The notes: generated by a model from the letters alone, not told the origin. Positions 331 through 21,784 are shown, numbered from the stretch's first letter. The stretch is 64,000 nt of DNA from a virus (IMGVR_UViG_3300034053_000029:146172-210171), one strand, 5' to 3'. Program-made: numbers and translations.

Positions 331-642
331 TTATTCTGTACGAGACATACCAGATAATTCGTCTCTATCATCTGCTCGTTTAGGTAATGCTCCTGTATGT
401 TTGGTTATGCTATGAATTTTTCCGTATACATTCTTACCACCACCACCATATTGACTATGAAGATGTGTTGTCATCGCAGAAAGATGTTCATCATCACCAA
501 CTTTACCACCTTCTAATGGGTCTGGTCCACTAACAACTCTTGTGTTTTTCTTGTCTCCATGAGTAACAATGTAATTTGAGTGATCACGGAATTTTTCCGT
601 TATAACTTGTCTGATTGCTTCGTGTAGTGAGTCAAAGTTCAT
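331..642 (-). CDS. His-rich small protein, possible internal head protein with a variant propeptide
   Basis: AAGGA RBS and late promoter at 667-674; N-terminus ends in V-I-T-E, resembling a gp21-type I/L-X-E site; 8 His in 103 aa. Confidence 0.55.
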   Translation of the reverse strand: MNFDSLHEAIRQVITEKFRDHSNYIVTHGDKKNTRVVSGPDPLEGGKVGDDEHLSAMTTHLHSQYGGGGKNVYGKIHSITKHTGALPKRADDRDELSGMSRTE

Positions 643-666
643 GATAATTCCTTTATGTGTATCGTA

Positions 667-674
667 TATTTATT
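667..674 (-). promoter_or_regulatory. T4-type late promoter (AATAAATA)
   Basis: Matches TATAAATA at 7/8; 25 nt upstream of the ATG at 642. Confidence 0.65.
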
Positions 675-2037
675 ACTTACTGTCTATAGAAAATACTTTT
701 CCACGAATCGTTGTTCCGCCATCCCTTGTGTAAAATGTCAAAATATCAACCCCATCTGAAGTCAATGTAGGAATGGTGCCACCATCCCATTTTGTATTGG
801 CAAACCATGTTTGAGCAAATAAACCACCATTCGTCAATTCGACAGTCCATGACGCAATTGTTCCACTTGATGGTAATCCAGTAATTGCCCATGATGTTAC
901 TGCAGTAGCACAAGTTGCATAATAAACAGCATCTGGTGAATATGCGATTGTCGTAGTTCCACTTGGAGTATATGAAGCAGCAACGGATGATGTACTATGT
1001 TTATGAACATCCATCTTGTTTAGGATGGTGTGCATGTTTGTGTCTGTGTTATCAAAGAACCCAACAAACGGCGCAACATCGACAATGATTTGGTCATCAG
1101 TCACTCCAGCAGCAAGTATTCTTGTCAATATTTTTCCATTTACGGCATGTGAATGTGCTACCGCACCAACAGCAACCGGATTGTTTGGTGCACTCGGTTT
1201 TGTTTTTGTCATCGCCCCTGGTGTTGATGGATGTAAGAATAGCACATCACCGTCATTCCAAGTTTCACCAACTGCAGACCCCGTTGTATTTAAATTGTGC
1301 AATATACCACTAGTAGTAACAACACCAAAAGCATTGTTTGTCATATCTGATGTGGCGATACCCAATACATCATAATTTGAATCTGTACTTGCTACCGCTA
1401 ATGATATTGTTGGTGTTTGTCCTGACGCACCACTTAATTTTACTACTTGACCATCAACAATAGTAGACCCCGAGGTATTTTTAACCTTTATCCACTGCTC
1501 AAATCCAATCTGCATAGAAGAACCAGAGATGTCAGAATAATATGACAATGCCTTTTTATCGGTGTCATACCAAATTCTACCTTCTTGATATGCTGGTGCG
1601 ATAACAGATGTGAAATTCAAATGATTTGTTATTGACCCATTCGACTCATCCACTTTCAAATCTAATGCAGTTTGGGTTGCCGACGAAACTGGTTTATTTG
1701 CATCTGAAGTATTATCGACGTTGCTAAGACCGACATCTGATTTAGTGACCCCATGAGGATTACCTGTAGTTCCAATATGTGTCTGAATGTTCGCATTTGC
1801 TGGTTCATATGAGTGAGAGTGTACTGTTGGTGCATATGTTCCATCGTGATTATGTCCTGTTGCTGATTTTCCGCTTAATGCAGAATTCAAATCAGTTTGG
1901 TCTGCTAAAGTACCGGTAATGTCTCCCCATACAAGATTTCCATCACCTGCTGGTCCTTGAACGCCTTGCGGTCCTTGAGTCCCAACAGTAACGACTGTAG
2001 TGACACCATTTTGCGAAATAACCGTAGTTTCACTCAT
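673..2037 (-). CDS. Tail fibre / virion decoration protein
   Basis: Short collagen-like GPQGVQGPAG; fibre motif VTKSDVGLSNVDNTSDANKPVSSATQTAL; Thr/Ser/Gly-rich beta domains; C-terminal W-x-GGTIPTLT...DILTF motif. Confidence 0.75.
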   Translation of the reverse strand: MSETTVISQNGVTTVVTVGTQGPQGVQGPAGDGNLVWGDITGTLADQTDLNSALSGKSATGHNHDGTYAPTVHSHSYEPANANIQTHIGTTGNPHGVTKSDVGLSNVDNTSDANKPVSSATQTALDLKVDESNGSITNHLNFTSVIAPAYQEGRIWYDTDKKALSYYSDISGSSMQIGFEQWIKVKNTSGSTIVDGQVVKLSGASGQTPTISLAVASTDSNYDVLGIATSDMTNNAFGVVTTSGILHNLNTTGSAVGETWNDGDVLFLHPSTPGAMTKTKPSAPNNPVAVGAVAHSHAVNGKILTRILAAGVTDDQIIVDVAPFVGFFDNTDTNMHTILNKMDVHKHSTSSVAASYTPSGTTTIAYSPDAVYYATCATAVTSWAITGLPSSGTIASWTVELTNGGLFAQTWFANTKWDGGTIPTLTSDGVDILTFYTRDGGTTIRGKVFSIDSK

Positions 2038-2378
2038 CTCGTTACTTCCTTAGAAACTTTGACTTTACCCTCAACCAATCGAGTGACGGTTGATCCGATA
2101 ACTACTTCAAGGTCATATACCCCTTTTACCCATGTCATTGCAGCAGTATCAGTAGCAGAAATTTCCAAATGAATTTTCCCATCAGTACCCACAGGGATCG
2201 AAAGGCGATCATTTTCCGTAGTCAATTCGATTAGCACTTCTCCATCAATACTATCTCTAACTTGCATCCTTGCGGTTGCTCCAGTTAGGTTAATGGCAAC
2301 ATCAAGTTCATCCTTCCACGTTAGTACATGAGTGAATGTAGCACCTTGTTCAATTGATAAATTTAATTTTCCTGCCAT
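2034..2378 (-). CDS. Small beta-sandwich virion structural protein (BppU-like adaptor)
   Basis: LSIEQGATF...W...INLTG.TARMQVR...GVYDLEV...RLVEGKV pattern, typical of small phage structural proteins next to fibre genes; ATGA overlap with 673..2037. Confidence 0.65.
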   Translation of the reverse strand: MAGKLNLSIEQGATFTHVLTWKDELDVAINLTGATARMQVRDSIDGEVLIELTTENDRLSIPVGTDGKIHLEISATDTAAMTWVKGVYDLEVVIGSTVTRLVEGKVKVSKEVTR

Positions 2379-2795
2379 TTATTTTCTCCAAAATGCTTTA
2401 ACCTTGATTTCTTTCGTCAATACACTATTTATGGTTGCTATGACATCTACAATAGATGTGTTCATTCTTCTAAACGATGCAAACACTTTTTCTAACGATG
2501 CTGCCATTAAGTAACTAACTGTTCTTCTCTGCTCCCATGTCTTACCTTTATGCTTTACTCTAACGATAATCTCATACGGACCTTCCCACGGTGTTTCAAT
2601 GAATGGAGGTCTAACAATTCCTCCACCACCTGCACCTTGTGGATTCTGAGGTACGATCTCAATTTCAATCGAACAACCAAATCCATTCGTTGCCATATTG
2701 AACGTAGAGAATCCTGGATAGATTCCCATCGTAGCAATCTGCAAATGCTCCTGACAGACCGATTCAGATTCATTATGAAATACACCTAATAGCAT
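2379..2795 (-). CDS. Hypothetical protein, probably virion-associated
   Basis: Abuts neighbours in a structural operon; Gly-rich linker GAGGGG. Confidence 0.6.
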   Translation of the reverse strand: MLLGVFHNESESVCQEHLQIATMGIYPGFSTFNMATNGFGCSIEIEIVPQNPQGAGGGGIVRPPFIETPWEGPYEIIVRVKHKGKTWEQRRTVSYLMAASLEKVFASFRRMNTSIVDVIATINSVLTKEIKVKAFWRK

Positions 2796-2804
2796 GATTG
2801 GTTA

Positions 2805-4286
2805 TCAGATTTCCTCACCCCAACCAAGAACCACTTCACTTGATCCGGCAGTGGAATCGTTGGTCACAATAAGGTAATCACCACGAACCAAATTCAATTC
2901 TAAATGACTATACGACAACTCTATAGATACTCTAGCACCTGCTTCCACAGTAATCGCACGAATAAACTCAAGATTTGCCACGGTTACTGCCGTTGCTCTT
3001 ACTGCACTCACATTCATGTCAGTTGAATCGGATTGAACGAATGAATGTTTACCACCATATCCTGCAACTAAAGTTTCACCTGTAATATCAGCAGCACTTC
3101 GAGTACGCCATAATTTAAACGTGCATTTCTTAGTGTTATGAACTGATAATGTTCTCAAATGAATAGTGCGAGTATTAACTAACGTACCAATTAAAAGAGG
3201 ATTATGAACAACTAAAACTGGTTTATCTGCACCAGTAGTCGCTACTGCTTGTGAATAGGCTGATCCCCATTGTTCTGGCGTCTCTTTACCATTCTCAGAT
3301 GTTATATCTACGCAACCAATTATAAGAGAGCAATTGGCAACTGCTGCATTTGCTGTGGTTGCTTTGAATGCTATAGGTAGAGCAGGATTACTCATACTTA
3401 ATGCAGTAAGAGTCCCCAACAAAGACATAGTATGAACATGAATGTTGTTGATGAAGAACTTATAATTTCCCATTCCACGCCATTGATATTGAATATCGTA
3501 AGTGTTACCCGCTTCAACATTGAATCCTGGAACTCCTGCAGTACTAATTAGTTGCTCTGCTACTTCAACGGTTAGCGATCTGCGTACTGCGTATAACAAA
3601 CCATCTGCTTTTAGGCGAAAGAATATACCCGCATCAATGTTTTGAACACCCCACTCTCTAACACATCCTGTTGCAGTCTTGCTTGGACAAATCAGTGCAG
3701 TTGAAAACAAATGACCACGATTGGGTTGATATGGTGGGCACACTCTAGATTCAAGTAATAAATTTGTTTTTCCTGTTGATGTAGTAAGAACTGCTGCTCC
3801 ACCTGTAGATACGATGTTAGTAGAGGTGTAAACTTGTACGCCACCTTCGTATGTAAACCACATTTTTGTTGGTATGTCAAAAGTGAACATCCCATGAAAT
3901 AGCGAGAACGGAAGAGACATTTTCTGAACACCCCAAGCATCTTCCGTAAGATCACCAGAACCTAGAGTGCCACTAATAGGAACAGGTGTTGCTCTCAATT
4001 GAGCATCGGTCAATGGTCCTGAGACTGGTTGTGTCGCTTGATAAAACGATCCAGAAACAGGAACTGCTGCTGCTCTCAATTGTGCATCTGTCAATGGTTG
4101 CGATAACCCAGTATTGGCAGTAACTGTGCCGGAAACAGGCAATGGATTGGTAGCACTAATGTCACCATCATTCACTCCATCATCACCATGAATCAGTTTT
4201 ACTCTCTGGTATTTTGCACCGGCAATCTCATCTGCTGCAATGACTGCTCCACCAATACCAGGATTTAGGGTTACATTATCTGCCAT
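2805..4286 (-). CDS. Virion structural protein with a lectin-like beta-sandwich domain
   Basis: N-terminal MADNVTLNPG...YQRVKL..G.DG; duplicated PLTDAQLRA motif; central Y-Q-P-x-R-G ... WG ... G-x-F-F ... Y-x-I-x-Y-Q-W-x-G-x-G pattern of phage ConA-like domains. Confidence 0.65.
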   Translation of the reverse strand: MADNVTLNPGIGGAVIAADEIAGAKYQRVKLIHGDDGVNDGDISATNPLPVSGTVTANTGLSQPLTDAQLRAAAVPVSGSFYQATQPVSGPLTDAQLRATPVPISGTLGSGDLTEDAWGVQKMSLPFSLFHGMFTFDIPTKMWFTYEGGVQVYTSTNIVSTGGAAVLTTSTGKTNLLLESRVCPPYQPNRGHLFSTALICPSKTATGCVREWGVQNIDAGIFFRLKADGLLYAVRRSLTVEVAEQLISTAGVPGFNVEAGNTYDIQYQWRGMGNYKFFINNIHVHTMSLLGTLTALSMSNPALPIAFKATTANAAVANCSLIIGCVDITSENGKETPEQWGSAYSQAVATTGADKPVLVVHNPLLIGTLVNTRTIHLRTLSVHNTKKCTFKLWRTRSAADITGETLVAGYGGKHSFVQSDSTDMNVSAVRATAVTVANLEFIRAITVEAGARVSIELSYSHLELNLVRGDYLIVTNDSTAGSSEVVLGWGEEI

Positions 4287-4296
4287 TTTTCACTTT

Positions 4297-4848
4297 CTAT
4301 TTTGCCCTAGCTACGACGTATGTATTTTTCAAATGATTTTTAACTGTATGTTTATCTTTCTTTTTTGGAACTTCATCACCATACTCATTGTCTGGTTTCT
4401 CAATTTGCTTTCTACCTTTGTGATATGTTAATTGAGTATCTGACATTTCACCAACTCTATCCATAACAGTTTTTCCACCTTCAGAATACTCATCTGAACC
4501 AATTGCTTTGATGCCTTGCTTATGAATGAGGTGATGAATGAGGTGATGCATCTTCATTGATCCATCAGACTTTTCATGTTTAGACATGGCATCTATACTT
4601 AGATGACCTTCATGTTCCTCGCCCCATATTGAAAGATCATTCACTTTTGTCTTCTTATTCTTTGCCCAATATACGGTTTGGTCATGAATATTGGTTCCTC
4701 TATGGATAGTATGAGTATCGGTCTCACCAATCTTCTTATGATCAAGATTCCAGTTTTCATCTTTTTTAGAGACATTCCAATCCATATTTTTTGGGATGTT
4801 TTTGTTTATGAATGCCATTTCTGAAATATATTCTTTAAAGGTTATCAT
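4297..4848 (-). CDS. Putative internal head (ejected) protein with T4-type capsid-targeting sequence; GNAT-like motif
   Basis: N-terminus MITFKEYISE versus T4 IPII/IPIII MKTYQEFIAE; 15 His in 183 aa; AIGSDEYSEGGKTV motif. Confidence 0.65.
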   Translation of the reverse strand: MITFKEYISEMAFINKNIPKNMDWNVSKKDENWNLDHKKIGETDTHTIHRGTNIHDQTVYWAKNKKTKVNDLSIWGEEHEGHLSIDAMSKHEKSDGSMKMHHLIHHLIHKQGIKAIGSDEYSEGGKTVMDRVGEMSDTQLTYHKGRKQIEKPDNEYGDEVPKKKDKHTVKNHLKNTYVVARAK

Positions 4849-4850
4849 GA

Positions 4851-7271
4851 TTACACCCTTTGTACCGTTGTTTGTTCTGTATTAGTGGTTATTGATTGTG
4901 TTATGTCACCTGCGAATCTACCTGTCTTGGTTACAATGAGTGGTTTCGCTGGATCAAGTCCCATCATATTGTAGAGTTCAAGTAACATCGTCGCCTGAGT
5001 ACCAGTCAATCCAGGGTTGCTACTAAGTGTCATAATATGAGCAAGTTCTGGAGTCAATTCGGTTCTAACTGCATCTGCCAATGCACCATAATCAACACCA
5101 CCAGATGAAGCGGTATTGAGTTTATTTCCAAATGTTCCTACATCGTTGTAATCGGCGGCAACTGAATTCCAAATGTCATCAGGAATCGTATCACCACGAC
5201 TACTTACCATAGCAAATTGTGCAGCAGGATCAACAAACACTTCATTTTCTGGTGCAGAAGTTCCTGTTGGGAATGTCTTATTATCTCTGATGAAGTTATC
5301 AAACAGAATCATCGTTCTTTGAGTGTTTGGTCCTATGTTGATACCATAATCGCTATTATTCTGAATGCGTGATGCTGATACCACATTCAATCGTGTCGAG
5401 TTTGAACTTGTGCCAGTAAATTTGATACCGCATCCACGGTTGTAGTAGATGTTGCAATTATCGAAGCGAACTTCTCTTGGTGATCCTTCTCCTGCTATTG
5501 GTGCATCCGTAAATCGGACACCATCCGATCCAAATTTCTCAATCTCACAACCGAATACTTTATGATAATCGCCACCCTTGAAATGCACACCAACACCGGT
5601 TCCTATTGCCGAACCACCACCGGTATCTGGTCCTACGATATACATATTCTCAAGTCGAGTAAATTTCGCATTGACCACGATACCATCTTCTGATCCGTTT
5701 GCCGAAGTTTTTAGGTAGATACCATTCAATGAGCAATTGTTTGCTGTGATATTGATAACAGGATCAGCAGTAATGGTACTTGGTTGAATCATAATACCAC
5801 GACCTGGTGCACGAATATGCACATCTTCTTTATTCATTACAATTCGTTCATCGAGTGGAGTTCCAACAGCACCTGGTGATAACAAGAAGATAACGTCACC
5901 ACGACCAGACACCGCTTTACCGATAGCAGCAGTAATCGTTTTCAATGGAGAAGCAGGTGAATTTCCTGGTGCCAAATCCGTACCATTTATGTGATCTACA
6001 TACCAACGTGATCCGAATCCTTGGTGTGATTGACGTAGCGATTCCACATCAAGTTTTGCTTGTTCTGCAACTGCTGCTGCGAAACCTGACGCATCAACTT
6101 CCGTACCTAATGAATAATTGACAAGCGTTCCGAATCCTGTAACCGTGATCTTCCCTTTGGTGCAAGTCGAATCAACGGTAACAGTTCCACCATTCAAGTG
6201 AATCCATACTTGACCAGATTGAGTAGCATGATTTTGATTGATGAATTTGATACGTCCATGAAATCCATCAAACGTCATATTCAGGCGAGCGCCGTTACGA
6301 TCAATAATTGCCGTACCTTCGTCCGAATAGCAATCTTTGAAATATGACGCATGACCATTAGATACTGCTGATGTTTGACGAATCGTATATGTTAGTGTGG
6401 ATGGAGTAAGCAAACCGCATCGTTCATAGAAACAATGTGCATTATCTAACCCATCAATAATACAATCGTGATAAATCGACTCACCACCTTGATATCCAGT
6501 GATTCTACAATGTGTCCAATGGGAATTTGTGGTGACACAACCAGAAGTCAAAGTGACTAAGGTTCTTGTAACATTCAATGTGGCACCGTCACCCTCAAAT
6601 CTCAGCGCAGTAAGATTACCACCGGATGAGTCGGTCGCTGTTGATGGAACCGTGAGATTTCCACGAATGTAAAAATTATCGAAACCTCTTGTTGTAGCAA
6701 TGGTTTTCGCATCTGCGATATTGTTTACTGGAACTTTGAATGTTCCGATTGGGTATGCCGTACCTGATGTTGCAACCGTGGAAACATTGCCTTGGTCAAT
6801 GGTAATTTCACCATTGAATGCTGCTTGTTCGATTTCAGCAATTTGTGCCAATGAAGAATCGACAAGGGATGATACTTGCAATTCGATGGTGACGCTGTAA
6901 TTACCAACAGCAGGTAGGAACGGAGAAGAACCGGAAGGGTCTGTATAAAGGTTTCCATTGACGGTTAGTCGATGATCGCCAGAATATGGACGAATACGCC
7001 AACCATTAGTTAAGAAGTACGTCGAACCAAGAGTTTTTGTGTCACTAATTGCGTCACCGCCCACTGCTCGCATGGCAGGTAAGTACTTTACGTTATCACT
7101 AACTAGTACCCATTCTTTCCAAGCAGAATATATGTCTTGAACTTCAACTAAAGTGACACCAACAGAGATTTCTATGACCTTATCATTGCCATAGAAAGTA
7201 AAATCTCTAATAGTATCGAATTCGGATATGTAACCTGCAGCAACATATCCAGTTGAGACATAATTACTCAT
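4851..7271 (-). CDS. Virion structural protein with a right-handed beta-helix (pectin-lyase-like) region
   Basis: N-terminal V.DIYSAWKEW...N.KY.PAMR.VGGD; beta-helix rungs (DGIVVN, GVGVHFKG, CEIEKFGSDGVRF, NSDYGINIG); IPDDIWN motif. Confidence 0.7.
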   Translation of the reverse strand: MSNYVSTGYVAAGYISEFDTIRDFTFYGNDKVIEISVGVTLVEVQDIYSAWKEWVLVSDNVKYLPAMRAVGGDAISDTKTLGSTYFLTNGWRIRPYSGDHRLTVNGNLYTDPSGSSPFLPAVGNYSVTIELQVSSLVDSSLAQIAEIEQAAFNGEITIDQGNVSTVATSGTAYPIGTFKVPVNNIADAKTIATTRGFDNFYIRGNLTVPSTATDSSGGNLTALRFEGDGATLNVTRTLVTLTSGCVTTNSHWTHCRITGYQGGESIYHDCIIDGLDNAHCFYERCGLLTPSTLTYTIRQTSAVSNGHASYFKDCYSDEGTAIIDRNGARLNMTFDGFHGRIKFINQNHATQSGQVWIHLNGGTVTVDSTCTKGKITVTGFGTLVNYSLGTEVDASGFAAAVAEQAKLDVESLRQSHQGFGSRWYVDHINGTDLAPGNSPASPLKTITAAIGKAVSGRGDVIFLLSPGAVGTPLDERIVMNKEDVHIRAPGRGIMIQPSTITADPVINITANNCSLNGIYLKTSANGSEDGIVVNAKFTRLENMYIVGPDTGGGSAIGTGVGVHFKGGDYHKVFGCEIEKFGSDGVRFTDAPIAGEGSPREVRFDNCNIYYNRGCGIKFTGTSSNSTRLNVVSASRIQNNSDYGINIGPNTQRTMILFDNFIRDNKTFPTGTSAPENEVFVDPAAQFAMVSSRGDTIPDDIWNSVAADYNDVGTFGNKLNTASSGGVDYGALADAVRTELTPELAHIMTLSSNPGLTGTQATMLLELYNMMGLDPAKPLIVTKTGRFAGDITQSITTNTEQTTVQRV

Positions 7272-7281
7272 GCCTCATTCC

Positions 7282-8004
7282 TTAGACAGCATAAAATGAT
7301 GGAGAAGGAGATTTGTTCTTCGTCGCTAAGTTTGAACTTTGATAATGTAAATCAATTGTTATGATGGCAGGTTCATTTATTGTACCACCTGTAATCGTTG
7401 GAATCGTCGCAACTTCGAAGTGGAACAAAAAGATTCCATCGACCTCAATCAAATTGGTATTGAGTTGATTTGGTCCAGGTGTTGATGATGTCAATTGAAT
7501 TTCATCCACACGGTGATGATATTGTGGGCAATTACCAATAGTCAAGCCAGGTATTGTAATCGTAGGTGCAATCTCAGCAGAGAAGTTTGCTTGCTGATGA
7601 CCTTTTGCGTAAGTGGTGAATACGTTTATGACAAAGTTTCCACTTATGCTTGTACCATTATGTGTCCAGTGAGCATGAAGGTGCATATCTGTACCAGGGA
7701 CATAATCGTGTGGTACATGGAATACGCAATCTGAATCATCACCAACAGAATAAAACCATACACGAACTTTTCCACCACTTCTCAATTCGGAACAAGTTGG
7801 TGGACTTGCTGCTGTTGCTCTTGATAGTTCTCCGGTCAAATCATGCCAACCGAATACCGGTGTGCCTAATGAATCGACTTTGATGCCAGTGCCGCTAACA
7901 CCAGTGACTAAAGGATTTACCCCATCCCTTAGATCAGTAAAATTGGTGTCTAAATCGTTATGGGTAAGTTCAGACCCTTTACCTGCTCTTGTTGTGATTG
8001 CCAT
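7282..8004 (-). CDS. Fibre-like virion protein
   Basis: N-terminal MAITTRAGKGSELTHNDLDTNF anchor motif common to T4-like fibre proteins, followed by a beta-sandwich domain. Confidence 0.65.
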   Translation of the reverse strand: MAITTRAGKGSELTHNDLDTNFTDLRDGVNPLVTGVSGTGIKVDSLGTPVFGWHDLTGELSRATAASPPTCSELRSGGKVRVWFYSVGDDSDCVFHVPHDYVPGTDMHLHAHWTHNGTSISGNFVINVFTTYAKGHQQANFSAEIAPTITIPGLTIGNCPQYHHRVDEIQLTSSTPGPNQLNTNLIEVDGIFLFHFEVATIPTITGGTINEPAIITIDLHYQSSNLATKNKSPSPSFYAV

Positions 8005-8035
8005 TTTCTACCGTCCATAATTTACATTATCACTA

Positions 8036-8043
8036 TATTTATT
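8036..8043 (-). promoter_or_regulatory. T4-type late promoter (AATAAATA)
   Basis: Intergenic, about 30 nt upstream of the ATG at 8004. Confidence 0.65.
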
Positions 8044-8052
8044 CATGGTGTG

Positions 8053-8337: not shown

Positions 8338-8367
8338 AATAAAAATCCTCCAGAATAGGTTGTTGTA

Positions 8368-8375
8368 TATTTATT
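8368..8375 (-). promoter_or_regulatory. T4-type late promoter (AATAAATA)
   Basis: Overlaps the stop codon of 8371..9192; 30 nt upstream of the ATG at 8337. Confidence 0.55.
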
Positions 8376-10958: not shown

Positions 10959-10959
10959 T

Positions 10960-13900: not shown

Positions 13901-16900
13901 GGAACAATACCTGCCGCATAGAAGTTCAATGATAACGAAGTAAGTCTATCGGTTCCATTCTTACCTTCAACGTCATAAGTCGCTTGCCAGTAATAGAAAC
14001 CAGTTGTTGGATTAGGAACATCGGTGAATGTCGTAGTGATCGTAGATGCTGCTGCCGTACCAGAACAGTTTGCTACCGTATTGCTACCTGATAACTTTCT
14101 TACGACATAATGATACTCGGTGTCTCTTACCACACCTAAAGGATCATCAAAATAACATACACTGGATGCACCCGTACCTAACGTGGTTCCTATGAAAGTT
14201 GTATTATCTCTTGCGGTGAATCCCGGTGTAGTCGATCTGAATATCTGATAAGCGTGCTTGTAAATTGTAAATGTCTGACCACTTATTGTTCTTAATGCAG
14301 GTTTACTTATTTCAAATGTCGTGGAGTTTGTGATAGAAGTCACCAATGTTCCACTGGTATTCGTTCCAACAGCAGGAGTACCGAAATAAATTGCACCAGA
14401 AATTGTACCACCGTTTGTAAGTACTGCACCTACATATAATCCGGCAGTAGACGCACAAGTTACTGTCGTACTACCTAGTGTGGTTGCCACTGAAGTAAGA
14501 GTTAGACCCGCTGTCGTATATTCTTGCGCTTGTGATAATAATGAAATACGATTCCAAACTGGATAAACATTATCATATAACGTCCAAGTAGGAGTTCCTG
14601 CAGTAATGTCGGGTGTGTAAGCGAACTTACCTGTTTGAGTAGAGATAACACCAACGGCATTACCGTTGTTTGTCATACTAATCCAATGGGTGCGTTCTGG
14701 CAAATATTTGAGTGCACCCCATGTTATCGAAGTTGCAGTATTTGATGTGGATACGACGTAACATTGACTTGCTCTTTGTGCATTTGTTGCATCGACTTGT
14801 GGATTACCACCATTGAGTGGAGTTGTTCCTGCAAGTAATACGAATGCGGTTCCGGTATAAATGATCTTGTTGTATGACATACCTGTGGGTAATGTAGGTG
14901 CGGTTCCTGCCGTCCAAGCAACACCATCAGCAGAACACGCTGTTGGACCATTAGTTGCTGACGCAGACACGCAACAGAATGTACCGTTACCATAAGCAAT
15001 TGATTGCCATAACGATGACACATTCACACCACCTACACTCCAAGTTGCCCCATCTGTAGAATATGATGTTGCCGTACTAGCAGTACCACCACCAGAAATC
15101 GCAACGTATCTTCCTGCACTATTTGAAGTAACATCGATCCAAACTGCAGATGCAAGAGTTGTTGCTGCAAATACGATAGACCCGTTTGTGATCGTTCCTC
15201 TTGTTCCTGCCGTACTTACTGCCGTACTTCCACCAACCGCCACCCACTTGTTAGTTGCTTGTGAATTATCAAATGCGAGTGCTGACCAAATGACAGATGC
15301 AGGTTCTGTTGTTACTGTCGACCAATCTTTACCATTCGTTGAATATGCGACTCTGGTAGAAGCAACACCACCACCTTGTATTGCCATGAAGTAATTTTGA
15401 GTAGGGCACCAAATAACTTTCCACCAGCCAGTTGTTGCTGAACCAATAGGCATCATCCATGAAGTCCAAGTTGCGCCATTATCCTCTGACACTAAGCAAG
15501 TATTCACACCTATATCTGATACTAATGCCACCCATACTCCGTTACCATAAGCAAGCGTCGGTGCCGTGCTAGTTGCCCAAGCAGGTAATGCGCCCATTCT
15601 TAGTGGTAATTGTTTCCACTTCTCAGGAGCAGACATGATACCACACATCTTCATACCTTCAACATGGGTAGAAGTATCTGCAAAATTGAAACTTTTGTAT
15701 GATTTTGTCTTAAACCAATACTTTGTATCGTTTGCTAAGAATGTTCCCGTTTCTGGATTGGTAAATGCACGATAACCAGATGCCCACGAATATCCTTCAT
15801 TATGCAGACCAATTTTGTGAGTTATATTTGAAACACTGACGGTGTTAACTGCAGCCGCAGTTAAAATCGTAGATAAATTGTACGCTTTGATATTATTAAA
15901 TGTTTGATTTGCCCCCGCAGTAGTTGTTGATATTACACCATTATACGGGCGAGTTCTTGGGTAACTACCAACGGCAATGACTTTCAGTCCATCCACTGTT
16001 ACGTTATTTGAATATGAAATACTAAATACGCCAGCATTTGATGAACCAACACCAGGATTAGTGCTTGATCCCGCCGCCTGATGACCACCAAATGTCAAAA
16101 CGATATTCGTAAATGTGGCGCCAGAAATATATATCCAATATATTGCAGTGAATGAAGTCCCAGCTGATTGTCCCGTACCAGTATTCATTCTATGCTCACG
16201 CATTACCCAGTTGCCATAATATGTGAATGCAATAGTTCCTGCCGTGCCGAAAGCAGCAGTAGAAACTGTAACCGATGTTGCACTATTGACTGTTGTTACC
16301 GTACAAGCATGAAGGTTCGTTCCGGTCAACAATACACCAGGAATAATTGCTGTTGATGATGGAATGGTAACGGTTGTCGTACTATTAGTCGAACCGGTTG
16401 CACCAAGAGCAGTTGCAGCAGTCAAACACATATTTGATGGTGGTAATCCAAACGCAGTATTAGTTACCGTGACCTGATAACACTCGGATACGAATGGAAC
16501 GTAAGCAAATCCACAATTGGTTATGGTTAACTTTGACGCTTGAGTGTAGTTAGAATACGATTCCCCAAACAAACACTTATTGAATGTGAATACCCCTCCG
16601 AATGGCGTAGTGAAATAACACCCTGCATTATTTGACGCAAAGTTATTCAGTTGGAAGTTTGCGGTTGATGTATCGGTCAAGAGAATATTCTGAACACGAA
16701 TCTTAGCACCGTTTGGTGGAATCTTTCCATTTGTGCCATCACCAAAGCGCAGCGTAGTTGAATATTGCGAGCAGATTGGTAATATACCAATGATAGGAAT
16801 GTTTGCAAATACGTTAGCGGCAATGACAGTCGAGTTTGTCGTGAATATAGTTGCACTAATAATTTGTTCAACTACGCAAGTTGCCGCTAAACCACGACCT

Positions 16901-18438
16901 GTTATCCATGTACCAGGAACCAATCCTGCCGTCGAAGTACAAGTGATGACGTTTGTATTTGGTATGCAATTACAATTTGCTAAGTTCAAATATTGAACTG
17001 CTGCTTGATTGAAATCTTGAGTGAAACAAGTACCAGAATCTCCATCAGATACAGATTGGAATCCGTTTCTGAAATATTTGTATGTTTGGAAATCGGATGC
17101 ACCAGTTACATTCGTCCAAAGTTCATAAATGCCTGTACCACTTCCTGTTTCAACTTCCAATGTTGGTATGTAATCACCATAAACGTATGGAGAAGTAAAT
17201 GTTTGTCCTGCAGCACCATTAGATGTTCCGATTTGAATATAATCACCTTCAACTTCAACTGTTGCTAATCCTGACGCAGCAATAATTGTATTGAGAGCGA
17301 CAGCAGTTGCAAGTTTGTTTGTGGTGAATCGAATAGGAGTCGTGGTGCTAGTATTCTCTATGCGTAATTTACCATTGGTGATATTGAGTGCACTTGCACC
17401 AGTTAATGCTTTCTTTTGATCCGTATTTACGGTTAGTGTTGCACCATTATTGATCGTGAGTGTATCGCCGGTCATGACCTTTGGTTCGATGAGATACACA
17501 CCCAAAATTGCAGCATTAGGACCAGTGAATGGTGTCCATGTAATACCATCAAATGAGAATGCAGCATTGGTCGAAAGTACCGTCAATGCGATAAACATCT
17601 GGCGGCCATCCCATGCCGCTTTACCACCACCGATCAACCAGTTAGCAGACGCAGGTAGCGTAGTAGATGTCCATGTTGCTCCGTTGTCGGTTGAATATGC
17701 AGAAGCAGTACCTGTACTTGGAACGACAACCCATGTTCCATTTGCTCCACCCATACTTGCCCACGAAATACTTGCCCATGCTGCTGTTGATGGGAGTGCT
17801 AATGATACCGTCGACCAACTTTGTCCATTGGTGCTAGTGTAAATGTCTCTTGTACCACTTCCAATAAGAATGAATTTACCATTACGATATTTTAGATCAG
17901 TCCATGTACCGGTTGCAGGTAAAGCGACCGGATTCCATGTGGTGCCATTGTCAGTTGAATATGCACTTGAAGTAGAACCAGACGCTACTGTGACGAATGT
18001 ACCATTACCAAATTCAATCAAGTTCCATGCTGCTGCTGATGGTAAAGCACCACCTGCTGCCCAATCGAGGCCTGCTCTTGGTTTGAATAATGCACAAGAA
18101 GTTGATGACGTATTGACAGTGATAAACGTACCATTACCAAAAGCGAGACCTTTCCATGCAGCACCTGCAGGGAGTGCGGTTGCTCGGTTTGTTGCACCAC
18201 CGGTCAATTCTGGAGTAGTTGTTGCTGTTACCGTCCTATTTGCTGCAATAAAAACTGCCAATTCATCTCCGAATGCGAATCCAGTCCAAGCGACGGCAGC
18301 ATCATTGATGTTACCGGAAGTTGTCCATGTGAATCCATTGACCGATGATGAAATCGTTCTTGAAGATGCAATAGGTGCGTAGAATCTGTATCCTACTTCA
18401 TTTAAATTTTGATTTGTTGTTGCTACATAAGCAGTCAT
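10960..18438 (-). CDS. Giant tail fibre/adhesin (2492 aa) with two Asp-box/BNR beta-propeller regions
   Basis: Repeats YSTDNGTTW, STNGQSW, STDNGATW, SFDGITW, SEDNGATW, STNGKDW, STDGATW, SADGVAW; FN3-like and CBM-like segments; ends DRQYSNPA; upstream neighbour is a fibre chaperone. Confidence 0.8.
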   Translation of the reverse strand: MTAYVATTNQNLNEVGYRFYAPIASSRTISSSVNGFTWTTSGNINDAAVAWTGFAFGDELAVFIAANRTVTATTTPELTGGATNRATALPAGAAWKGLAFGNGTFITVNTSSTSCALFKPRAGLDWAAGGALPSAAAWNLIEFGNGTFVTVASGSTSSAYSTDNGTTWNPVALPATGTWTDLKYRNGKFILIGSGTRDIYTSTNGQSWSTVSLALPSTAAWASISWASMGGANGTWVVVPSTGTASAYSTDNGATWTSTTLPASANWLIGGGKAAWDGRQMFIALTVLSTNAAFSFDGITWTPFTGPNAAILGVYLIEPKVMTGDTLTINNGATLTVNTDQKKALTGASALNITNGKLRIENTSTTTPIRFTTNKLATAVALNTIIAASGLATVEVEGDYIQIGTSNGAAGQTFTSPYVYGDYIPTLEVETGSGTGIYELWTNVTGASDFQTYKYFRNGFQSVSDGDSGTCFTQDFNQAAVQYLNLANCNCIPNTNVITCTSTAGLVPGTWITGRGLAATCVVEQIISATIFTTNSTVIAANVFANIPIIGILPICSQYSTTLRFGDGTNGKIPPNGAKIRVQNILLTDTSTANFQLNNFASNNAGCYFTTPFGGVFTFNKCLFGESYSNYTQASKLTITNCGFAYVPFVSECYQVTVTNTAFGLPPSNMCLTAATALGATGSTNSTTTVTIPSSTAIIPGVLLTGTNLHACTVTTVNSATSVTVSTAAFGTAGTIAFTYYGNWVMREHRMNTGTGQSAGTSFTAIYWIYISGATFTNIVLTFGGHQAAGSSTNPGVGSSNAGVFSISYSNNVTVDGLKVIAVGSYPRTRPYNGVISTTTAGANQTFNNIKAYNLSTILTAAAVNTVSVSNITHKIGLHNEGYSWASGYRAFTNPETGTFLANDTKYWFKTKSYKSFNFADTSTHVEGMKMCGIMSAPEKWKQLPLRMGALPAWATSTAPTLAYGNGVWVALVSDIGVNTCLVSEDNGATWTSWMMPIGSATTGWWKVIWCPTQNYFMAIQGGGVASTRVAYSTNGKDWSTVTTEPASVIWSALAFDNSQATNKWVAVGGSTAVSTAGTRGTITNGSIVFAATTLASAVWIDVTSNSAGRYVAISGGGTASTATSYSTDGATWSVGGVNVSSLWQSIAYGNGTFCCVSASATNGPTACSADGVAWTAGTAPTLPTGMSYNKIIYTGTAFVLLAGTTPLNGGNPQVDATNAQRASQCYVVSTSNTATSITWGALKYLPERTHWISMTNNGNAVGVISTQTGKFAYTPDITAGTPTWTLYDNVYPVWNRISLLSQAQEYTTAGLTLTSVATTLGSTTVTCASTAGLYVGAVLTNGGTISGAIYFGTPAVGTNTSGTLVTSITNSTTFEISKPALRTISGQTFTIYKHAYQIFRSTTPGFTARDNTTFIGTTLGTGASSVCYFDDPLGVVRDTEYHYVVRKLSGSNTVANCSGTAAASTITTTFTDVPNPTTGFYYWQATYDVEGKNGTDRLTSLSLNFYAAGIVPGSIVTGVGIPVGTTVIDVIDFDTVRLSANLTADVKNRGNSRTYVGFSPAPGMFVYGSNVGMNCKVVTVDSNTSMTVSIANTNTFTTQTLRFVAGFELPEITCIPQAPLCYLNLALQNETLATAPWTASGITATNATGQFSPLNNFVGINSANPATTTTQLIATSANGTLTQTIQTGVGTVHTFALWARANLPDNRTYITMKMDLGTTSETKNLTNQWQRFSVSFTTTASTTNAVITLPAIGSSINVAHVTVTRTSAVPPPIANATTTFPVYQFPQQFLNSSGGLYGWNIDGGAGIETTLSTSPWQFWADLHIGTTPSFTPTVQNLLFSNQSPGVEPVISAITSAANINVSNYQPINTKQIHHGFLLFPISGATNVSVKDSTHTINGSLGYVYYAGPGYSVYLHNIDVINVRPYVSTAYMDSSSTSNASSGIKVQNVRSNRVARVPWYVQSLDTQIRGVFGGDPYPLQNGTTWNLSSEPTYSGSQITSQSVFDGMFREYTYGSQPRGCLDIRLIASSKASKPYTITSGTPFFTNDGNLALTTAGDQVVIEWPHFVKGLTGFTRRLPHIYSTDLGLNLVTSLGVLIEYQLDKGSGYGGTWKQLNGVIGMNNLADETGISPSTGVRPKFRITARPTLKYTAQVGQFMPGWVVQNALTSPTATAVVVDDEAVTTVAGSLVVSNITGEWLTSNTIYSGTMNTTMTNTTNASATTTGSNITGTTFTVGTQATGVVAAGMMLTGTNVLTGTYIVSNIAGSGSGSTWLVSKSHSATGTQNINGTNNLITLTSNANFYVGAGVVAIGTTFGGIASGSTNYVSEVIGSTQIAIATSFNNALAGTNATLSTASGSCPIGGIHSTITAVNTSFVFAPQPTSRLNSFRLFTETDTDTAYNYAYSSGSLVLTGLQTDSEVRVFRISDGFELGGTESSGTTFTLNYDYYENTDIIIVIHHLNYLPIRLEDQVLDGTTLTIPVQQTFDRQYSNPA

Positions 18439-18974
18439 GCGTACACCTCAGGCCAATTATTTTCAATATCAAAATGCTCAGGATACTCCAATGCCTCACA
18501 TTGCGCTTTCAGGTATTCTGCATACCCATAAATGGTTTGTTCTTGTGTCATTTGGGCATAATATATCGATGTTGCTAATTCAGGTGTCATCTCAACCTTC
18601 TCGCCTGACATTGTTTTCCACATGATCCCTGCAGGTAAATTATTTCCTGCGATAATCAATGATAGTTGTTGCACTTTTGAATGCGTGTCTGAGTGATACC
18701 AATACTCACCGACCTTGCATCCACCAGTATGAATCTTGGTGTCACGAATCTCTTGAATGCGCTTCCATACCGTGTCGAATATGTCTAATCGTGCGTTATT
18801 GATGGGACCAAATTCTCCGGCAGCAGCACGGGTGAAAAGTTCTCTATTGTATTCATCGGTATCATCACTATGAGCAATGAATGGGACTTCAGAATCGTGG
18901 TCAACAAATTTAACGATCAAACTTATCGAAGTTCTTGTCTTCCATATTGGTTTTAGCGCATACTCATAGTTCAT
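18435..18974 (-). CDS. Tail fibre assembly chaperone (Tfa-like N-terminus plus DUF4376-like C-terminus)
   Basis: V.F.D...VPF.A..DD...Y.RELF..A.AGEFGPI followed by I..IRD.K...G......W.HSD..S...Q; start reassigned to the ATG at 18974, which avoids overlap with 19015..19356 and lies behind a late promoter. Confidence 0.8.
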   Translation of the reverse strand: MNYEYALKPIWKTRTSISLIVKFVDHDSEVPFIAHSDDTDEYNRELFTRAAAGEFGPINNARLDIFDTVWKRIQEIRDTKIHTGGCKVGEYWYHSDTHSKVQQLSLIIAGNNLPAGIMWKTMSGEKVEMTPELATSIYYAQMTQEQTIYGYAEYLKAQCEALEYPEHFDIENNWPEVYA

Positions 18975-19003
18975 TGTATTTCCAACACTGTTAGGTAATA
19001 CTA

Positions 19004-19011
19004 TATTTATG
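19004..19011 (-). promoter_or_regulatory. T4-type late promoter (CATAAATA)
   Basis: Just after the stop at 19015; 30 nt upstream of the ATG at 18974. Confidence 0.6.
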
Positions 19012-19014
19012 TCA

Positions 19015-19356
19015 TCACTTGCAATATATCTTGCGCTCCCATCGATCCTTACAATTTTCACCGGCACATGATTTGATTTCGTTCTTCAACCACTGCAAGT
19101 TTTCAATCTTATCACACCCACCACACGCTAACGGAATAACATGATCTATCGCCCAACCGAGGCAAGAACCCATCGCTTTACCTGTTGATGGGCAATGGTA
19201 TAACTTCCTGAACTCAAATAAAACCTTGTTGTCTCGTTTTATCTTACCATCAACCGTTCTTTCTGGTGCCCCACATATTCTTGAATCTGCAGCATGATAT
19301 GGATCAGGATGAGCAAGTGCAAGTGTTGGGAGTATCAATAGAAATAAGAATTTCAT
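19015..19356 (-). CDS. Secreted HNH (beta-beta-alpha-metal) nuclease
   Basis: Signal peptide MKFLFLLILPTLALA|HP; CPSTG...G.C.GW.IDHVIPLACGG.D..ENLQWL...KD.WE; 8 Cys. Confidence 0.8.
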   Translation of the reverse strand: MKFLFLLILPTLALAHPDPYHAADSRICGAPERTVDGKIKRDNKVLFEFRKLYHCPSTGKAMGSCLGWAIDHVIPLACGGCDKIENLQWLKNEIKSCAGENCKDRWERKIYCK

Positions 19357-19652
19357 CTTAATGTTGGTGTTGTCGTTGCTGCATGAGTTGGTGGGCGGCG
19401 ATCCATACGATCAAGTAACATTTCGATCAATCTTTCTTGTCTTGCTTGTGACGCTTGGATCGATTGTGTTCTTTCATCAACTCGGTCACTTTGCGAACGA
19501 ATCTGGACAATTTCTTTCTTAACTTCCGCATTTGATTTGACTGCCTCTTCCAAAGACTGAATCTTGTATTGTGCTTGACCCCATGCTGCACTCATTGAAG
19601 ATAAAGCAACGATGAGAAACCAATGTTTTTGGAGCCATTCAACCATTTTCAT
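19353..19652 (-). CDS. Membrane-anchored coiled-coil protein (holin/XhlA-like architecture)
   Basis: Hydrophobic WFLIVALSSMSAAWG followed by heptad-rich QSLEEAVK...IRSQSDRVDERTQSIQASQARQE. Confidence 0.6.
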   Translation of the reverse strand: MKMVEWLQKHWFLIVALSSMSAAWGQAQYKIQSLEEAVKSNAEVKKEIVQIRSQSDRVDERTQSIQASQARQERLIEMLLDRMDRRPPTHAATTTPTLR

Positions 19653-19872
19653 GTCCCTTCACTTTAAATCCAAAACTCTTAGCCCTCTTGACAAAATCAC
19701 CTAAATCTTTTGCATGGATGTTTACATTATGAGTGCCTAGCTTTTTACCGTGTAATGGTAAACCTGCAGTTGATTGATGATGAATAATAGAAACTGGATG
19801 CATTCCATTCTCATTTGGTTCACCCACATGAACTGTTGCCATTTCCAATATAAAATCTTTAAATGTTTTCAT
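19639..19872 (-). CDS. Putative internal head protein with T4-type capsid-targeting sequence
   Basis: GGAG spacing favours the second ATG (19872), giving MKTFKDFILE|MAT, a 10-residue CTS; 8 His in 77 aa. Confidence 0.7.
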   Translation of the reverse strand: MKTFKDFILEMATVHVGEPNENGMHPVSIIHHQSTAGLPLHGKKLGTHNVNIHAKDLGDFVKRAKSFGFKVKGHENG

Positions 19873-19897
19873 CATTTCTCCGTCGATTCAATAATAA

Positions 19898-20212
19898 TTA
19901 TCCAAAATATAATATATTGTCTGAAAATCTATCTCTTTTACATTCATGTAACACTTTTGGTATCTTGTGGTTGTCAAGCAAAGTACCAATCTCCAATTTA
20001 ATAACTTTATATGAATCGCATTGTATATCTATATACTTACCATTTTTCTCTTCATAAAAAGGTTTTTTGAATTTTAAAGCTAAAGCTCCATTCAGATTGC
20101 CCTCTAATGGTTCTTCATTTAATGCAGATTGTATCTCATTCAATTCTGTGTCATTCAATTCATAGAATCGATGAATTAAATCGGTTGCAACAATTTTTAA
20201 TGTAGTTATCAT
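19898..20212 (-). CDS. Hypothetical protein
   Basis: ATGA overlap with 20209..20769; AT-rich; no recognised motif. Confidence 0.65.
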   Translation of the reverse strand: MITTLKIVATDLIHRFYELNDTELNEIQSALNEEPLEGNLNGALALKFKKPFYEEKNGKYIDIQCDSYKVIKLEIGTLLDNHKIPKVLHECKRDRFSDNILYFG

Positions 20213-20769
20213 AATGTGTCCTTGCTCAATATAATGTGCTTATCAGAATCAATATCGTCTTCAAAATATTTATCTAGATGATCATTCAAGTTGCTATGAT
20301 CCAATTTCGTCAAAGATTTACCGTCATGATAATAAACGTGGTGCCCATCATCGAGTGCTCGTTTAGTCAATCTCTTCCACATACCATGAGCAGAATCAGA
20401 TTGAGTTTTATCTGTCTTTAGTGGTAAATTTGACTGTTTAAAATGATCATAAATCACATTAGTTGCATGATGTTTAGGTAAATCGCCATGCTTTACTACA
20501 CCAGTTTGTACTTCACATGGTATAGGACTATGAGTCTTTTTTATTGAACAGTAGTGTAATGTTTCTTGTTTGTCATGATCTAAAGTATGATATTCTGTTG
20601 TTCCTTTATATTCATCTCTATGAACTTTAACATTATGGGAAATGTGATTTATTATCGGAGAATCTTTTATAGCAACAAACATCTTTTTGCGTTCATGCTC
20701 TTGTTCTAATTGATTAGGCACATTTAACCTAAATGATTGTTCATTTAAATATTCTCTAAATGTTTTCAA
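20209..20769 (-). CDS. Putative internal head protein with T4-type capsid-targeting sequence; GNAT-like motif
   Basis: TTG start at 20769 overlapping the upstream TGA (TTGA) gives MKTFREYLNE|QSF; 19 His in 186 aa; LKTDKTQSDSAHGMWKRL motif. Confidence 0.7.
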   Translation of the reverse strand: MKTFREYLNEQSFRLNVPNQLEQEHERKKMFVAIKDSPIINHISHNVKVHRDEYKGTTEYHTLDHDKQETLHYCSIKKTHSPIPCEVQTGVVKHGDLPKHHATNVIYDHFKQSNLPLKTDKTQSDSAHGMWKRLTKRALDDGHHVYYHDGKSLTKLDHSNLNDHLDKYFEDDIDSDKHIILSKDTL

Positions 20770-21251
20770 TCTTTTTCCACCCAATTCAATTGGCATCCTT
20801 TTTTTATCAGTGCCATAACTATGTTTGCAGGTATCGGTTCAGATTCAACCACACCACCTTTTTGTAATATCGAACTAACATACTCAGCACATTGCCACTC
20901 ATCATTTTTACCAACAACGACTTTCTTGAAAAATGCTCGCAATGCTTCCATTCTTGAATATTTATTACCGACCAATGAAAGTGCATACTCTTCTAAATCA
21001 GCATGCCAATATTCATCTACGGGAATCCAATAGAACGGAACCTCTTTACTCAAAGGGAATATTCTGATCTTTGGTGATACTGCTTCGAGAATGAATACTC
21101 TTCCTGCAATAACCCAAGCGATACCCACATGAGTATATTCAGATCGAGTGAATATTCTGACCATTTGTGCTTCTAAGTGTTCCCAACTAGTATCCGTCCA
21201 AGCAAGAACGTCACCGGATTTGATTTTTGGGCGGGCGTCAGAGTATTTCAT
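20766..21251 (-). CDS. Permuted papain-like NlpC/P60 enzyme (YiiX/YebB-like)
   Basis: KSGDVL...IFTRSEYTHVGI...ILEA...VGNKY...WQCAEYV: His precedes Cys, as in the permuted family. Confidence 0.85.
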   Translation of the reverse strand: MKYSDARPKIKSGDVLAWTDTSWEHLEAQMVRIFTRSEYTHVGIAWVIAGRVFILEAVSPKIRIFPLSKEVPFYWIPVDEYWHADLEEYALSLVGNKYSRMEALRAFFKKVVVGKNDEWQCAEYVSSILQKGGVVESEPIPANIVMALIKKGCQLNWVEKD

Positions 21252-21784
21252 GGTAGTCTCGTACTTTTCATATGTGATTCCGTAAACATTGGGAACATTT
21301 TATTTTCTTTCAATGTTCTCTTTATTGTAGAGGTATGCATTTCATTTCCTCCAATATTTTCAAAATCATGATTTACATCATATCCATTGTGCTTACCAAT
21401 TCTATCTATTATTGGCTTTAATTTTTTATGTATGTCTGGTCGAGCAACTATCTTAATTGTTTTATCGCTATCGATTAAATCTTTTGCATAATGTAAAGCA
21501 GTTCCAATAAATTTTGGGTTTGGTGAAGAAAGTTTTGGTGGAGCATCTCCAGAAGAATTATCACTAGCTATATGATGAAGTTCGTGATAACCTTTTCGGA
21601 TAGCATGAATCAAATGTCCATTATCGCCTTCTAACTTAAATACTTTAACCGCACCAAATTTATGATCTTTATATGCTTCATCATTATTGAAATGATGTCT
21701 AACCATTTCTTCCATGTCTGGATCATGTTCCATTTTCCATGGCTTATCAAATAACTCAAACAAATACTCTTTAAAGGTGTTCAT
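21248..21784 (-). CDS. Putative internal head protein with T4-type capsid-targeting sequence
   Basis: MNTFKEYLFE|LFDKP; 15 His in 178 aa; additional L-K-E and F-T-E sites near the C-terminus. Confidence 0.7.
   Translation of the reverse strand: MNTFKEYLFELFDKPWKMEHDPDMEEMVRHHFNNDEAYKDHKFGAVKVFKLEGDNGHLIHAIRKGYHELHHIASDNSSGDAPPKLSSPNPKFIGTALHYAKDLIDSDKTIKIVARPDIHKKLKPIIDRIGKHNGYDVNHDFENIGGNEMHTSTIKRTLKENKMFPMFTESHMKSTRLP

Follow-up and report, generated by a model that had tools for sequence, protein, structure and literature searches.

We analysed a 64,000-nucleotide stretch of viral DNA (IMGVR_UViG_3300034053_000029:146172-210171, hereafter the window), which is the last 64 kb of a complete virus record of 210,171 bp with direct terminal repeats and 38% G+C. 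Four open reading frames (ORFs) in the window start with a decapeptide tag that is nearly the same as the capsid-targeting sequence (CTS) of the internal proteins (IPs) of phage T4, and the encoded proteins are probably cargo of a T4-type capsid-targeting system. These ORFs, named after the window positions at which they start, are listed here with a fifth whose membership is doubtful.

W21784: window 21248..21784, minus strand; 178 amino acids, tag MNTFKEYLFE (coded at 21755-21784), 8.4% histidine (15/178), predicted GNAT-like mature part
W20769: window 20209..20769, minus strand; 186 amino acids, TTG start, tag (M)KTFREYLNE (coded at 20740-20769), 10.2% histidine (19/186)
W19872: window 19639..19872, minus strand; 77 amino acids, tag MKTFKDFILE followed by MA (coded at 19843-19872), 10.4% histidine (8/77), an orphan
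W4848: window 4297..4848, minus strand; 183 amino acids, tag MITFKEYISE followed by MA (coded at 4819-4848), 8.2% histidine (15/183)
W642: window 331..642, minus strand; 103 amino acids, 7.8% histidine (8/103), possible long IPI-style leader MNFDSLHEAIRQVITE, doubtful member

A preliminary description of this DNA had reported four ORFs with starts of the form M-x-T-F-[KR]-[ED]-[FY]-[IL]-x-E. Their translations match as quoted, from the same starts and on the minus strand, and the histidine counts given for all five ORFs (15/183, 8/77, 19/186, 15/178 and 8/103) are exact. The proposed TTG start at 20769 also holds: it overlaps the stop codon of the preceding gene (TTGA), and five of five metagenomic homologues of W20769 begin at that position with M-[KI]-[TSK]-F. 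The start of W21784 overlaps the preceding stop in the same way (ATGA). W19872 has a Shine-Dalgarno sequence, GGAG, 5 nt ahead of its second ATG and a mature part of 67 residues; we found no relatives of it in IMG/VR, and an ESM Atlas search gave no informative fold match. W642 had been proposed as a fifth member. Its translation and start are as described, but its membership did not hold up, given that its leader has D4 and H7 where the tag has aromatic residues and that an IMG/VR search returned no homologues. Pfam and PHROG scans of the five ORFs gave no significant match, including none to internal proteins; tblastn searches of GenBank phages with W4848, W20769 and W21784 and a megablast search with the region were likewise without a match.

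Judged by its head genes, the genome is that of a T4-like myovirus. It encodes a Gp23 major capsid protein (PF07068, genome 128983-130098, E 2.5e-135 in Pfam) and a gp21-type prohead protease (Peptidase_S77, PF03420, genome 132367-132786, 68 bits, E 8e-20), the very enzyme whose absence the preliminary description had named as evidence against its proposal. An acidic ORF of 413 amino acids between these two genes resembles the gp22 scaffold, and a portal-like ORF lies further on, so that the T4-type prohead set (gp23 shell, gp22-like scaffold and gp20 portal) is all found in the genome, with the scaffold and portal assigned from position and composition only. The N-terminal extension of gp23 (the Delta-region) ends in M-L-Q-E/A, where the slash marks the predicted cut, in agreement with the cleavage rule of the tags discussed below. 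The capsid protein is closest (59-62% identity) to those of Pelagibacter phage HTVC008M, Methylophilales phage Melnitz and Kyanoviridae cyanomyoviruses, with about 62% for HTVC008M, which makes this uncultured phage an aquatic, distant relative of T4. Homing-endonuclease-like ORFs interrupt the head module at genome 127387-128862, between the capsid gene and a histidine-rich ORF, and at 131550-132125, between the protease and the scaffold.

In T4 (NC_000866), IPII and IPIII start with MKTYQEFIAE, as the preliminary description had stated and as we read directly from the record; IPI starts with MKTFKEF and has ITE ahead of its mature part. Suppressor and truncation work on T4 IPIII assigns targeting mainly to residues 4 and 7 and processing to residues 8 and 10, and Asp at position 10 prevents cleavage (reviewed in PMC9026906). 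The four window ORFs all have F4, Y7 or F7, L8 or I8, and E10. The I or L at position 8 and E10 also occur in four tagged ORFs outside the window (below). A secretion signal was ruled out from the sequence itself, as the leaders have no hydrophobic stretch.

Conservation among metagenomic relatives points in the same direction. Homologues in the W20769, W21784 and W4848 families start with the tag, and those of W21784 retain the junction E/LFDKP as well. An exhaustive profile search for the W20769 family yielded 103 cluster representatives, of which 67 form the family alignment and 64 have a leader on which the junction could be counted. Among these 64, 55 have L or I at P3, 63 have E at P1, 57 have M at P1' and 45 have A at P2', while the leader itself varies in sequence and in length (5-26 residues). 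This nearly fixed junction is the gp21 rule, in which I/L-x-E is followed by the cut. Many family members have longer leaders of 14-26 residues, often of the form D-x-[IV]-A-x-x-Y-[IL]..., that still end in L-x-E/M-A; perhaps they represent another class of capsid leader, used by different lineages of phages. In the AlphaFold2 model of W20769, the leader is the sole part of low confidence: residues 1-20 have pLDDT values of 56-60 and residues 10-13 fall below 50, compared with an average above 90 for the body, which is compatible with a propeptide that is exposed and cleavable. Of the large IMG/VR contigs that have this tag and could be tested, four of four encode an S77 protease. The mature parts are rich in lysine, and for three of the four window ORFs their isoelectric point (pI) is 8.1-9.6, like that of T4 IPs.

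The preliminary description had called these proteins packaged, ejected cargo. All the sequence features that this would need are in place, and packaging, cleavage and ejection are what we infer from them. Because the S77 protease and head genes are present, residues 4, 7, 8 and 10 are kept, and homologues conserve both tag and junction, the reading as packaged cargo is supported at the level of sequence.

A motif scan of the whole genome, as the preliminary description had proposed, found seven occurrences of the core [TS][FY][KRQ][EDQ][FY][ILVM]x[ED] in the proteome of 66,536 residues, compared with 0.04 expected from composition, and six of the seven begin at residue 3 of an ORF. A profile scan over every possible start codon added two more members, which brings the tagged ORFs to eight. 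The four outside the window, in genome coordinates, are as follows.

98990-100465, minus strand: tagged ORF of 491 amino acids, MKTYKEFIVE, phrog_2319
56312-56791, minus strand: tagged ORF, MISFKQYLEE, phrog_16075
53696-54262, minus strand: tagged ORF, MITFKTFITE
84806-85435: tagged ORF, MKSYLQLIKE, paralogue of W20769

The eight copies of the tag are about 70% identical at codon positions 1 and 2, compared with 39% at position 3 and about 30% in the 30-nt flanks. Where two copies share a residue, different codons are used in 63 of 113 pairs. Given the low identity of third positions and flanks relative to the first two codon positions, selection acts on the peptide and not on the DNA.

The tag is modular: in this genome, eight or more proteins carry it, and they belong to several kinds that are unrelated to each other. 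The W21784 family resembles other tagged families in the first 11-12 residues only, and the PHROG match of ORF 56312 begins exactly at residue 11. ORF 98990 belongs to the widespread phrog_2319; its alignments with members of that family from Ackermannviridae, vibriophages and actinophages start no earlier than residues 15-20. Here an existing protein has clearly gained a tag.

The tag is also common beyond this genome. A DNA-pattern scan of IMG/VR for MKTFKEY[LIF]xE found at least 120 loci, and the 110 complete ORFs among the matches listed fall into about 25 unrelated groups. One family of about 190 amino acids accounts for 80 of these 110 ORFs; its members start with MKTFKEYLxE followed by NK, SK or GK, are low in histidine and weakly match a PHROG annotated as a virion structural protein (E 0.003), and the family is absent from the present genome. 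Arrays of tagged ORFs that include HAD-like, nucleotidyltransferase-like and DUF6267 proteins occur on contigs L009 (with a W21784 homologue) and L142 (with a W20769 homologue). L009 is syntenic with the tail-fibre genes of the window; DUF6267, which is tagged in L009, is absent from this genome. On L009 (1-3797) and L010, both Logan contigs with a W21784 homologue, genes for GTP cyclohydrolase I, a TGT/DpdA-like protein and QueC adjoin the tagged array, which suggests 7-deazaguanine DNA modification in those phages. IMGVR_UViG_3300048834_000096 (L017:2357-3739) has four tandem ORFs that start with MKTFKEY[IL]xE, one of them HAD-like with a DxDxT motif and 8.8% histidine, and the contig also encodes an S77 protease.

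The tagged genes of the window are all on the minus strand, amid tail-fibre-type genes (a beta-helix protein, a DUF4376 protein and a fibre-like protein of 2,492 amino acids). W4848 sits between genes of this type, and its upstream neighbour encodes a beta-helix protein. The heptamer ATAAATA, the T4-type late-promoter box, is on the coding (minus) strand in 18 of its 19 occurrences in the window, and at least 11 sites lie in short gaps, 25-45 nt before gene starts, where T4-type late promoters would be expected. These boxes are on the same strand as the structural genes. Three are relevant to the tagged genes.

24345..24351, minus strand: late-promoter box heading the compact gene run 24306-19639, which contains W21784, W20769 and W19872
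20959..20965, minus strand: late-promoter box inside this run, 190 nt ahead of the start codon of W20769
667..673, minus strand: ATAAATA late-promoter box, 25 nt upstream of W642

We saw no convincing terminator within the gene run 24306-19639, and a scan of window positions 18000-25700 for sigma-70 promoters and terminators found nothing above chance. Between W21784 and W20769, at window 20766-21251 on the minus strand, lies an ORF of 161 amino acids that has no capsid tag and matches phrog_1128 (E 1e-11), a family annotated as "enoyl-CoA hydratase/carnithine racemase-like, host takeover".

Among the tagged proteins, W20769 is a clear paralogue of the product of genome ORF 84806-85435 (36-41% identity, E 1e-31). 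Profile comparison links the W20769 family to the W4848 family (hhalign 88% and 81%, E 3e-6 and 1e-5) and to genome ORF 102321 (80% probability). The tagged ORFs had been called otherwise dissimilar in the preliminary description; this stands for the W21784 family, alike only in its tag region, and fails for W20769 and W4848, which are distant kin. The best-conserved block of the W20769 family is P116...Q123...G127...W131, with 97-100% conservation.

Structure prediction and Foldseek searches, which the preliminary description had proposed as a check, give models of W20769 and W21784 with GNAT folds. The AlphaFold2 model of W20769 (pLDDT 91.6) matches KKT23, NatD, AtaT and GCN5 in Foldseek, and its top PDB matches are all GNAT proteins. 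VIA-align gave Z scores of up to 9.2 over 121 residues with a root-mean-square deviation (rmsd) of 3.2 Å, and 28 chains reached a Z of at least 8. Against AlphaFold DB clusters, the TM score is up to 0.72, with proteins named GNAT at 0.64-0.70. The best-scoring PDB match is the regulatory, non-catalytic GNAT-like domain of M. tuberculosis ICL2. W20769 is, according to this model, a divergent GNAT fold. The mature part of W21784 is predicted to be GNAT-like: its AlphaFold2 model (pLDDT 72.6) has the GNAT order of strands and helices, nearly all of its top PDB matches are GNAT proteins, and its ESM Atlas model resembles GNAT models. In the W21784 family, [KR]-F-[IV]-G-T-[AMS] starts a helix at residues 90-105 and loosely fits a pyrophosphate-binding loop. 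For W4848, the link to GNAT consists only of the profile link to W20769 and of viral GNAT clusters among its ESM feature neighbours. The mature parts have no sequence homology to T4 IPI, IPII or IPIII in phage-database, Pfam and PHROG searches, which is expected since the IPs share only the tag (PMC3012670).

Histidine makes up 2.33% of residues genome-wide and 5-10% in seven of the eight tagged ORFs. The tagged ORFs of the window are within the 11 most histidine-rich of the 317 ORFs in the genome (Mann-Whitney p = 2e-5). We considered whether histidine richness is general to tagged proteins and rejected this: the IMG/VR matches listed (n=110) have a median of 1.2% histidine, and six have at least 5%. 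The bias is instead a trait of these families and this lineage, not of the tag. The W20769 family has a median of 6.8% histidine over 61 representatives, and about 10 of its alignment columns are histidine in 50-76% of the 67 representatives. The W21784 and W4848 families have five invariant histidines each, and the tagged HAD-like and nucleotidyltransferase-like proteins of relatives contain 8-10% histidine. The calculated charge rises by 4 to 15 units from pH 7.5 to 6.0 for the proteins tabulated; among them, the four window ORFs gain about 4 to 10.

Most other histidine-rich ORFs of this genome also have a leader ending in I/L-x-E, for example LQE in ORF 102321 and ILE in ORF 56788; an ADP-ribosyltransferase (ART) and a PF17338 protein of 577 amino acids have no clear leader. 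The most histidine-rich ORF in the genome (11%) is at 126505-127353 on the minus strand, encodes 282 amino acids, is adjacent to the capsid gene and is preceded by a late-promoter box. The leader of this protein, 17 residues long (M-T-F-H-T-F ... I-L-S-E), is like the long leader of T4 IPI. A cluster of four histidine-rich ORFs at genome 53696-57378 (minus strand) comprises two with canonical tags, the 577-amino-acid PF17338 (GP88) protein and one with a leader ending in ILE. The ART (PF03496, E 1e-8) has 210 amino acids, R-S-ExE-type motifs and 9% histidine, and is encoded on the minus strand at genome 142148-142780, 3.4 kb before the window. It is a candidate for packaged cargo similar to T4 Alt, without a clear CTS.

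Our explanation, to which we give a probability of roughly 70%, is that the four window ORFs encode cargo of a T4-type capsid-targeting system, with the following mechanism. The decapeptide would bind the protein to a gp22-type scaffolding core during prohead assembly, with the aromatic residues at positions 4 and 7 making contact. The gp21-type S77 protease would then cut after E10, at I/L-x-E. The mature protein would remain amid the packaged DNA and would most likely exit with it at infection, much as IPI-III and Alt of T4 leave the head with the DNA. W20769, W4848 and W21784 are divergent proteins rich in histidine and lysine, with a predicted GNAT (acyl-CoA N-acyltransferase) fold. As a working hypothesis, they could be injected to serve as enzymes, or to bind acyl-CoA, and to act on targets in the host as soon as infection begins; their semi-conserved histidines would together provide a surface for binding metal or phosphate. 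The analysis shows the motif and its non-random placement, the protease and head genes, the conserved tag and junction and the predicted fold; that the proteins are packaged, cut and ejected, that they are made late and that they have any activity as enzymes is deduced from these. A broader and rather unlikely version is that this aquatic T4-like lineage packs a whole set of histidine-rich enzymes (GNAT, ADP-ribosyltransferase-, HAD- and nucleotidyltransferase-like, in this genome or its relatives) that are injected for covalent modification of host molecules within seconds of infection. The histidines would then be a shared adaptation of cargo, for example for metal-dependent folding or for pH-dependent binding and release of DNA.

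Several observations weigh against the explanation as a whole or in part. The mature W20769 protein has a pI of 6.9 and so is not basic. T4 gene 61.1 (NC_000866 18966-19130, minus strand), a third ORF of T4 with the exact pattern, lies next to the primase gene and has a full CTS-type leader, MKTFKEFIKE, but its product, a hypothetical protein of 54 amino acids, does not count among the known internal proteins. The packaging of this protein may have been overlooked, or else the motif does not suffice for packaging. Its existence means that the motif alone is not proof of packaging and that timing matters. Of the cultured phages closest to this one, HTVC008M, Melnitz and P-RSM6 lack an ORF with a canonical tag; Synechococcus phage S-CREM1 has one, and its gene SCREM1_177 starts with MKSYKQFLSE. 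The total count of ATAAATA is not above chance, and late expression rests on these promoter-like heptamers only. With respect to the fold, none of the 67 aligned members of the W20769 family matched an Acetyltransf family at E <= 0.1 or any other Pfam family, nor did the family profile match PDB sequences, so the GNAT assignment is structural only. W20769 also does not have a clear Q/R-x-x-G-x-G/A loop between beta4 and alpha3; its family has L-P-K-x-x-A there, which is poorly conserved. We rate the assignment of W21784 lower because its best Z of 7.5 (122 residues, rmsd 4.2 Å) is in the range that the tool calls "middling".

Some of these points favour an alternative in which the proteins are packaged and cleaved, but serve as bulk internal proteins that neutralise the charge of DNA and aid its condensation. 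The GNAT-like fold would be a relic scaffold, and the histidines, being titratable, would make the proteins more positive when the pH is slightly acidic. We regard this as unlikely, but as deserving serious attention. The mature parts are indeed Lys-rich and mostly basic, like IPII and IPIII, their charge increases toward pH 6.0, and lysines of T4 internal proteins contact DNA phosphates (PMC3012670). The missing canonical acetyl-CoA loop, the lack of a Pfam GNAT match and the non-catalytic, regulatory nature of the best PDB match (the ICL2 domain) all agree with a relic. However, the roughly 10 conserved histidine columns and the P116-W131 block suggest a specific site and not bulk composition, and other tagged cargo in relatives is plainly enzyme-like (HAD-like, nucleotidyltransferase-like). 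It is improbable that the decapeptide instead forms an N-terminal helix which these proteins share for a different purpose, for example contact with a common partner or more favourable translation initiation, and that the proteins are cytoplasmic. T4 gp61.1 may be such a case, having the motif without being a known virion protein, and most cultured Kyanoviridae relatives lack the motif. Yet the conserved positions are exactly those needed for targeting and gp21 processing, and the L/I-x-E/M-A junction is the most conserved N-terminal feature of the W20769 family even where the leader differs. The tag and S77 also occur together on all four large contigs, the genes are co-oriented with structural genes behind late-promoter boxes, and the dominant tagged family among the IMG/VR matches listed is the one that weakly matches a virion structural PHROG.

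The remaining alternatives explain the shared start without an address. Common descent of a single paralogous family has very little probability: W20769, ORF 84806, W4848 and ORF 102321 are related and W21784 may share their fold class, but W21784 and its relatives match the others over 11-12 residues only, and as the whole explanation a single family is ruled out by this. In addition, ORFs 98990, 56312 and 53696 represent unrelated cargo, the identical tag heads about 25 unrelated families among the IMG/VR matches listed, and homologues of ORF 98990 in other phage groups have no leader. A cassette at the DNA or RNA level (a promoter, leader or recombination site), with the peptide being incidental, is hardly credible. 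Conserved ends at polymorphic ip loci could aid exchange. Such polymorphic loci occur in T-even phages according to Repoila et al. 1994, in the accounts given by PMC3012670 and PMC9026906. The cassette is contradicted by the comparison of codon positions and flanks, in which position 3, the flanks and the codons chosen for identical residues all diverge. Capsid targeting is our preferred explanation.

If it is correct, the tagged proteins are concrete candidates for enzymes of host takeover or anti-defence. Since the modular tag recurs, reaching at least eight genes in one genome and at least 120 loci in IMG/VR, the tag together with an S77 protease is a cheap rule for finding candidate injected phage proteins in metagenomes. 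The cargo of related contigs shows the histidine bias as well, and this bias could be relevant to the survival of proteins packed amid DNA.

The closest known system is that of T4 IPI, IPII and IPIII. The peptides are nearly the same (MKTYQEFIAE and MKTFKEF... in T4, MKTFKDFILE and MITFKEYISE here), with aromatic residues at positions 4 and 7, I or L at position 8 and E10, and both genomes encode a gp21-type protease, a gp22-type scaffold and gp23. In both cases the genes are dispersed (T4 ipI is apart from ipII and ipIII), unrelated cargo shares the tag only, and the mature parts are Lys-rich and mostly basic. The differences are that at least eight genes are tagged here compared with three known IPs in T4, that the window cargo has 8-10% histidine compared with 1-3% in T4 IPs, that several cargo proteins have a predicted enzyme-type (GNAT) fold and no similarity to IPI-III, and that the phage is a distant aquatic T4-like virus.

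T4 Alt is another parallel, in that this enzyme travels in the head, is processed by the prohead protease and, once injected, modifies proteins of the host, and the present genome encodes an ART. However, the IPIII-type decapeptide is not used by Alt, none of the window proteins is an ART, and the ART of this genome has no clear tag. With respect to the fold, the W20769 model resembles members of the GNAT superfamily such as the toxins AtaT, TacT and KacT and the C-terminal domain of ICL2 (Z 7.3-9.2, 107-121 residues, rmsd of about 3 Å). These toxins acetylate tRNA, and the ICL2 domain binds acetyl-CoA. The window proteins differ from them in their low identity (6-12%), the lack of a match at the sequence level and the non-canonical pyrophosphate-binding loop, and in having many semi-conserved histidines and a predicted cleavable capsid tag. 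Giant phages of the phiKZ/SPN3US type reportedly load many head-internal proteins by means of propeptides that are cleaved after Glu by a protease like T4 gp21. The propeptides and cleavage contexts are different in those phages, whereas the T4 decapeptide itself is used here.

The T4 capsid tag is a textbook route for loading injected proteins, described mostly in T-even coliphages and for small, non-enzymatic cargo. The internal proteins of T-even phages are a diverse set in which the CTS is the sole shared part (PMC3012670), and the CTS may be a general route by which T4-like phages load varied proteins (PMC9026906). Because these reviews already describe both points, our finding extends the known T4 system and establishes no new principle. 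What is new is that a distant, aquatic lineage has nearly the same tag, how many of its genes are tagged, the lineage-wide histidine bias and the cargo with predicted enzyme folds, above all a previously undescribed, histidine-rich GNAT-like family of about 100 clusters at 50% identity.

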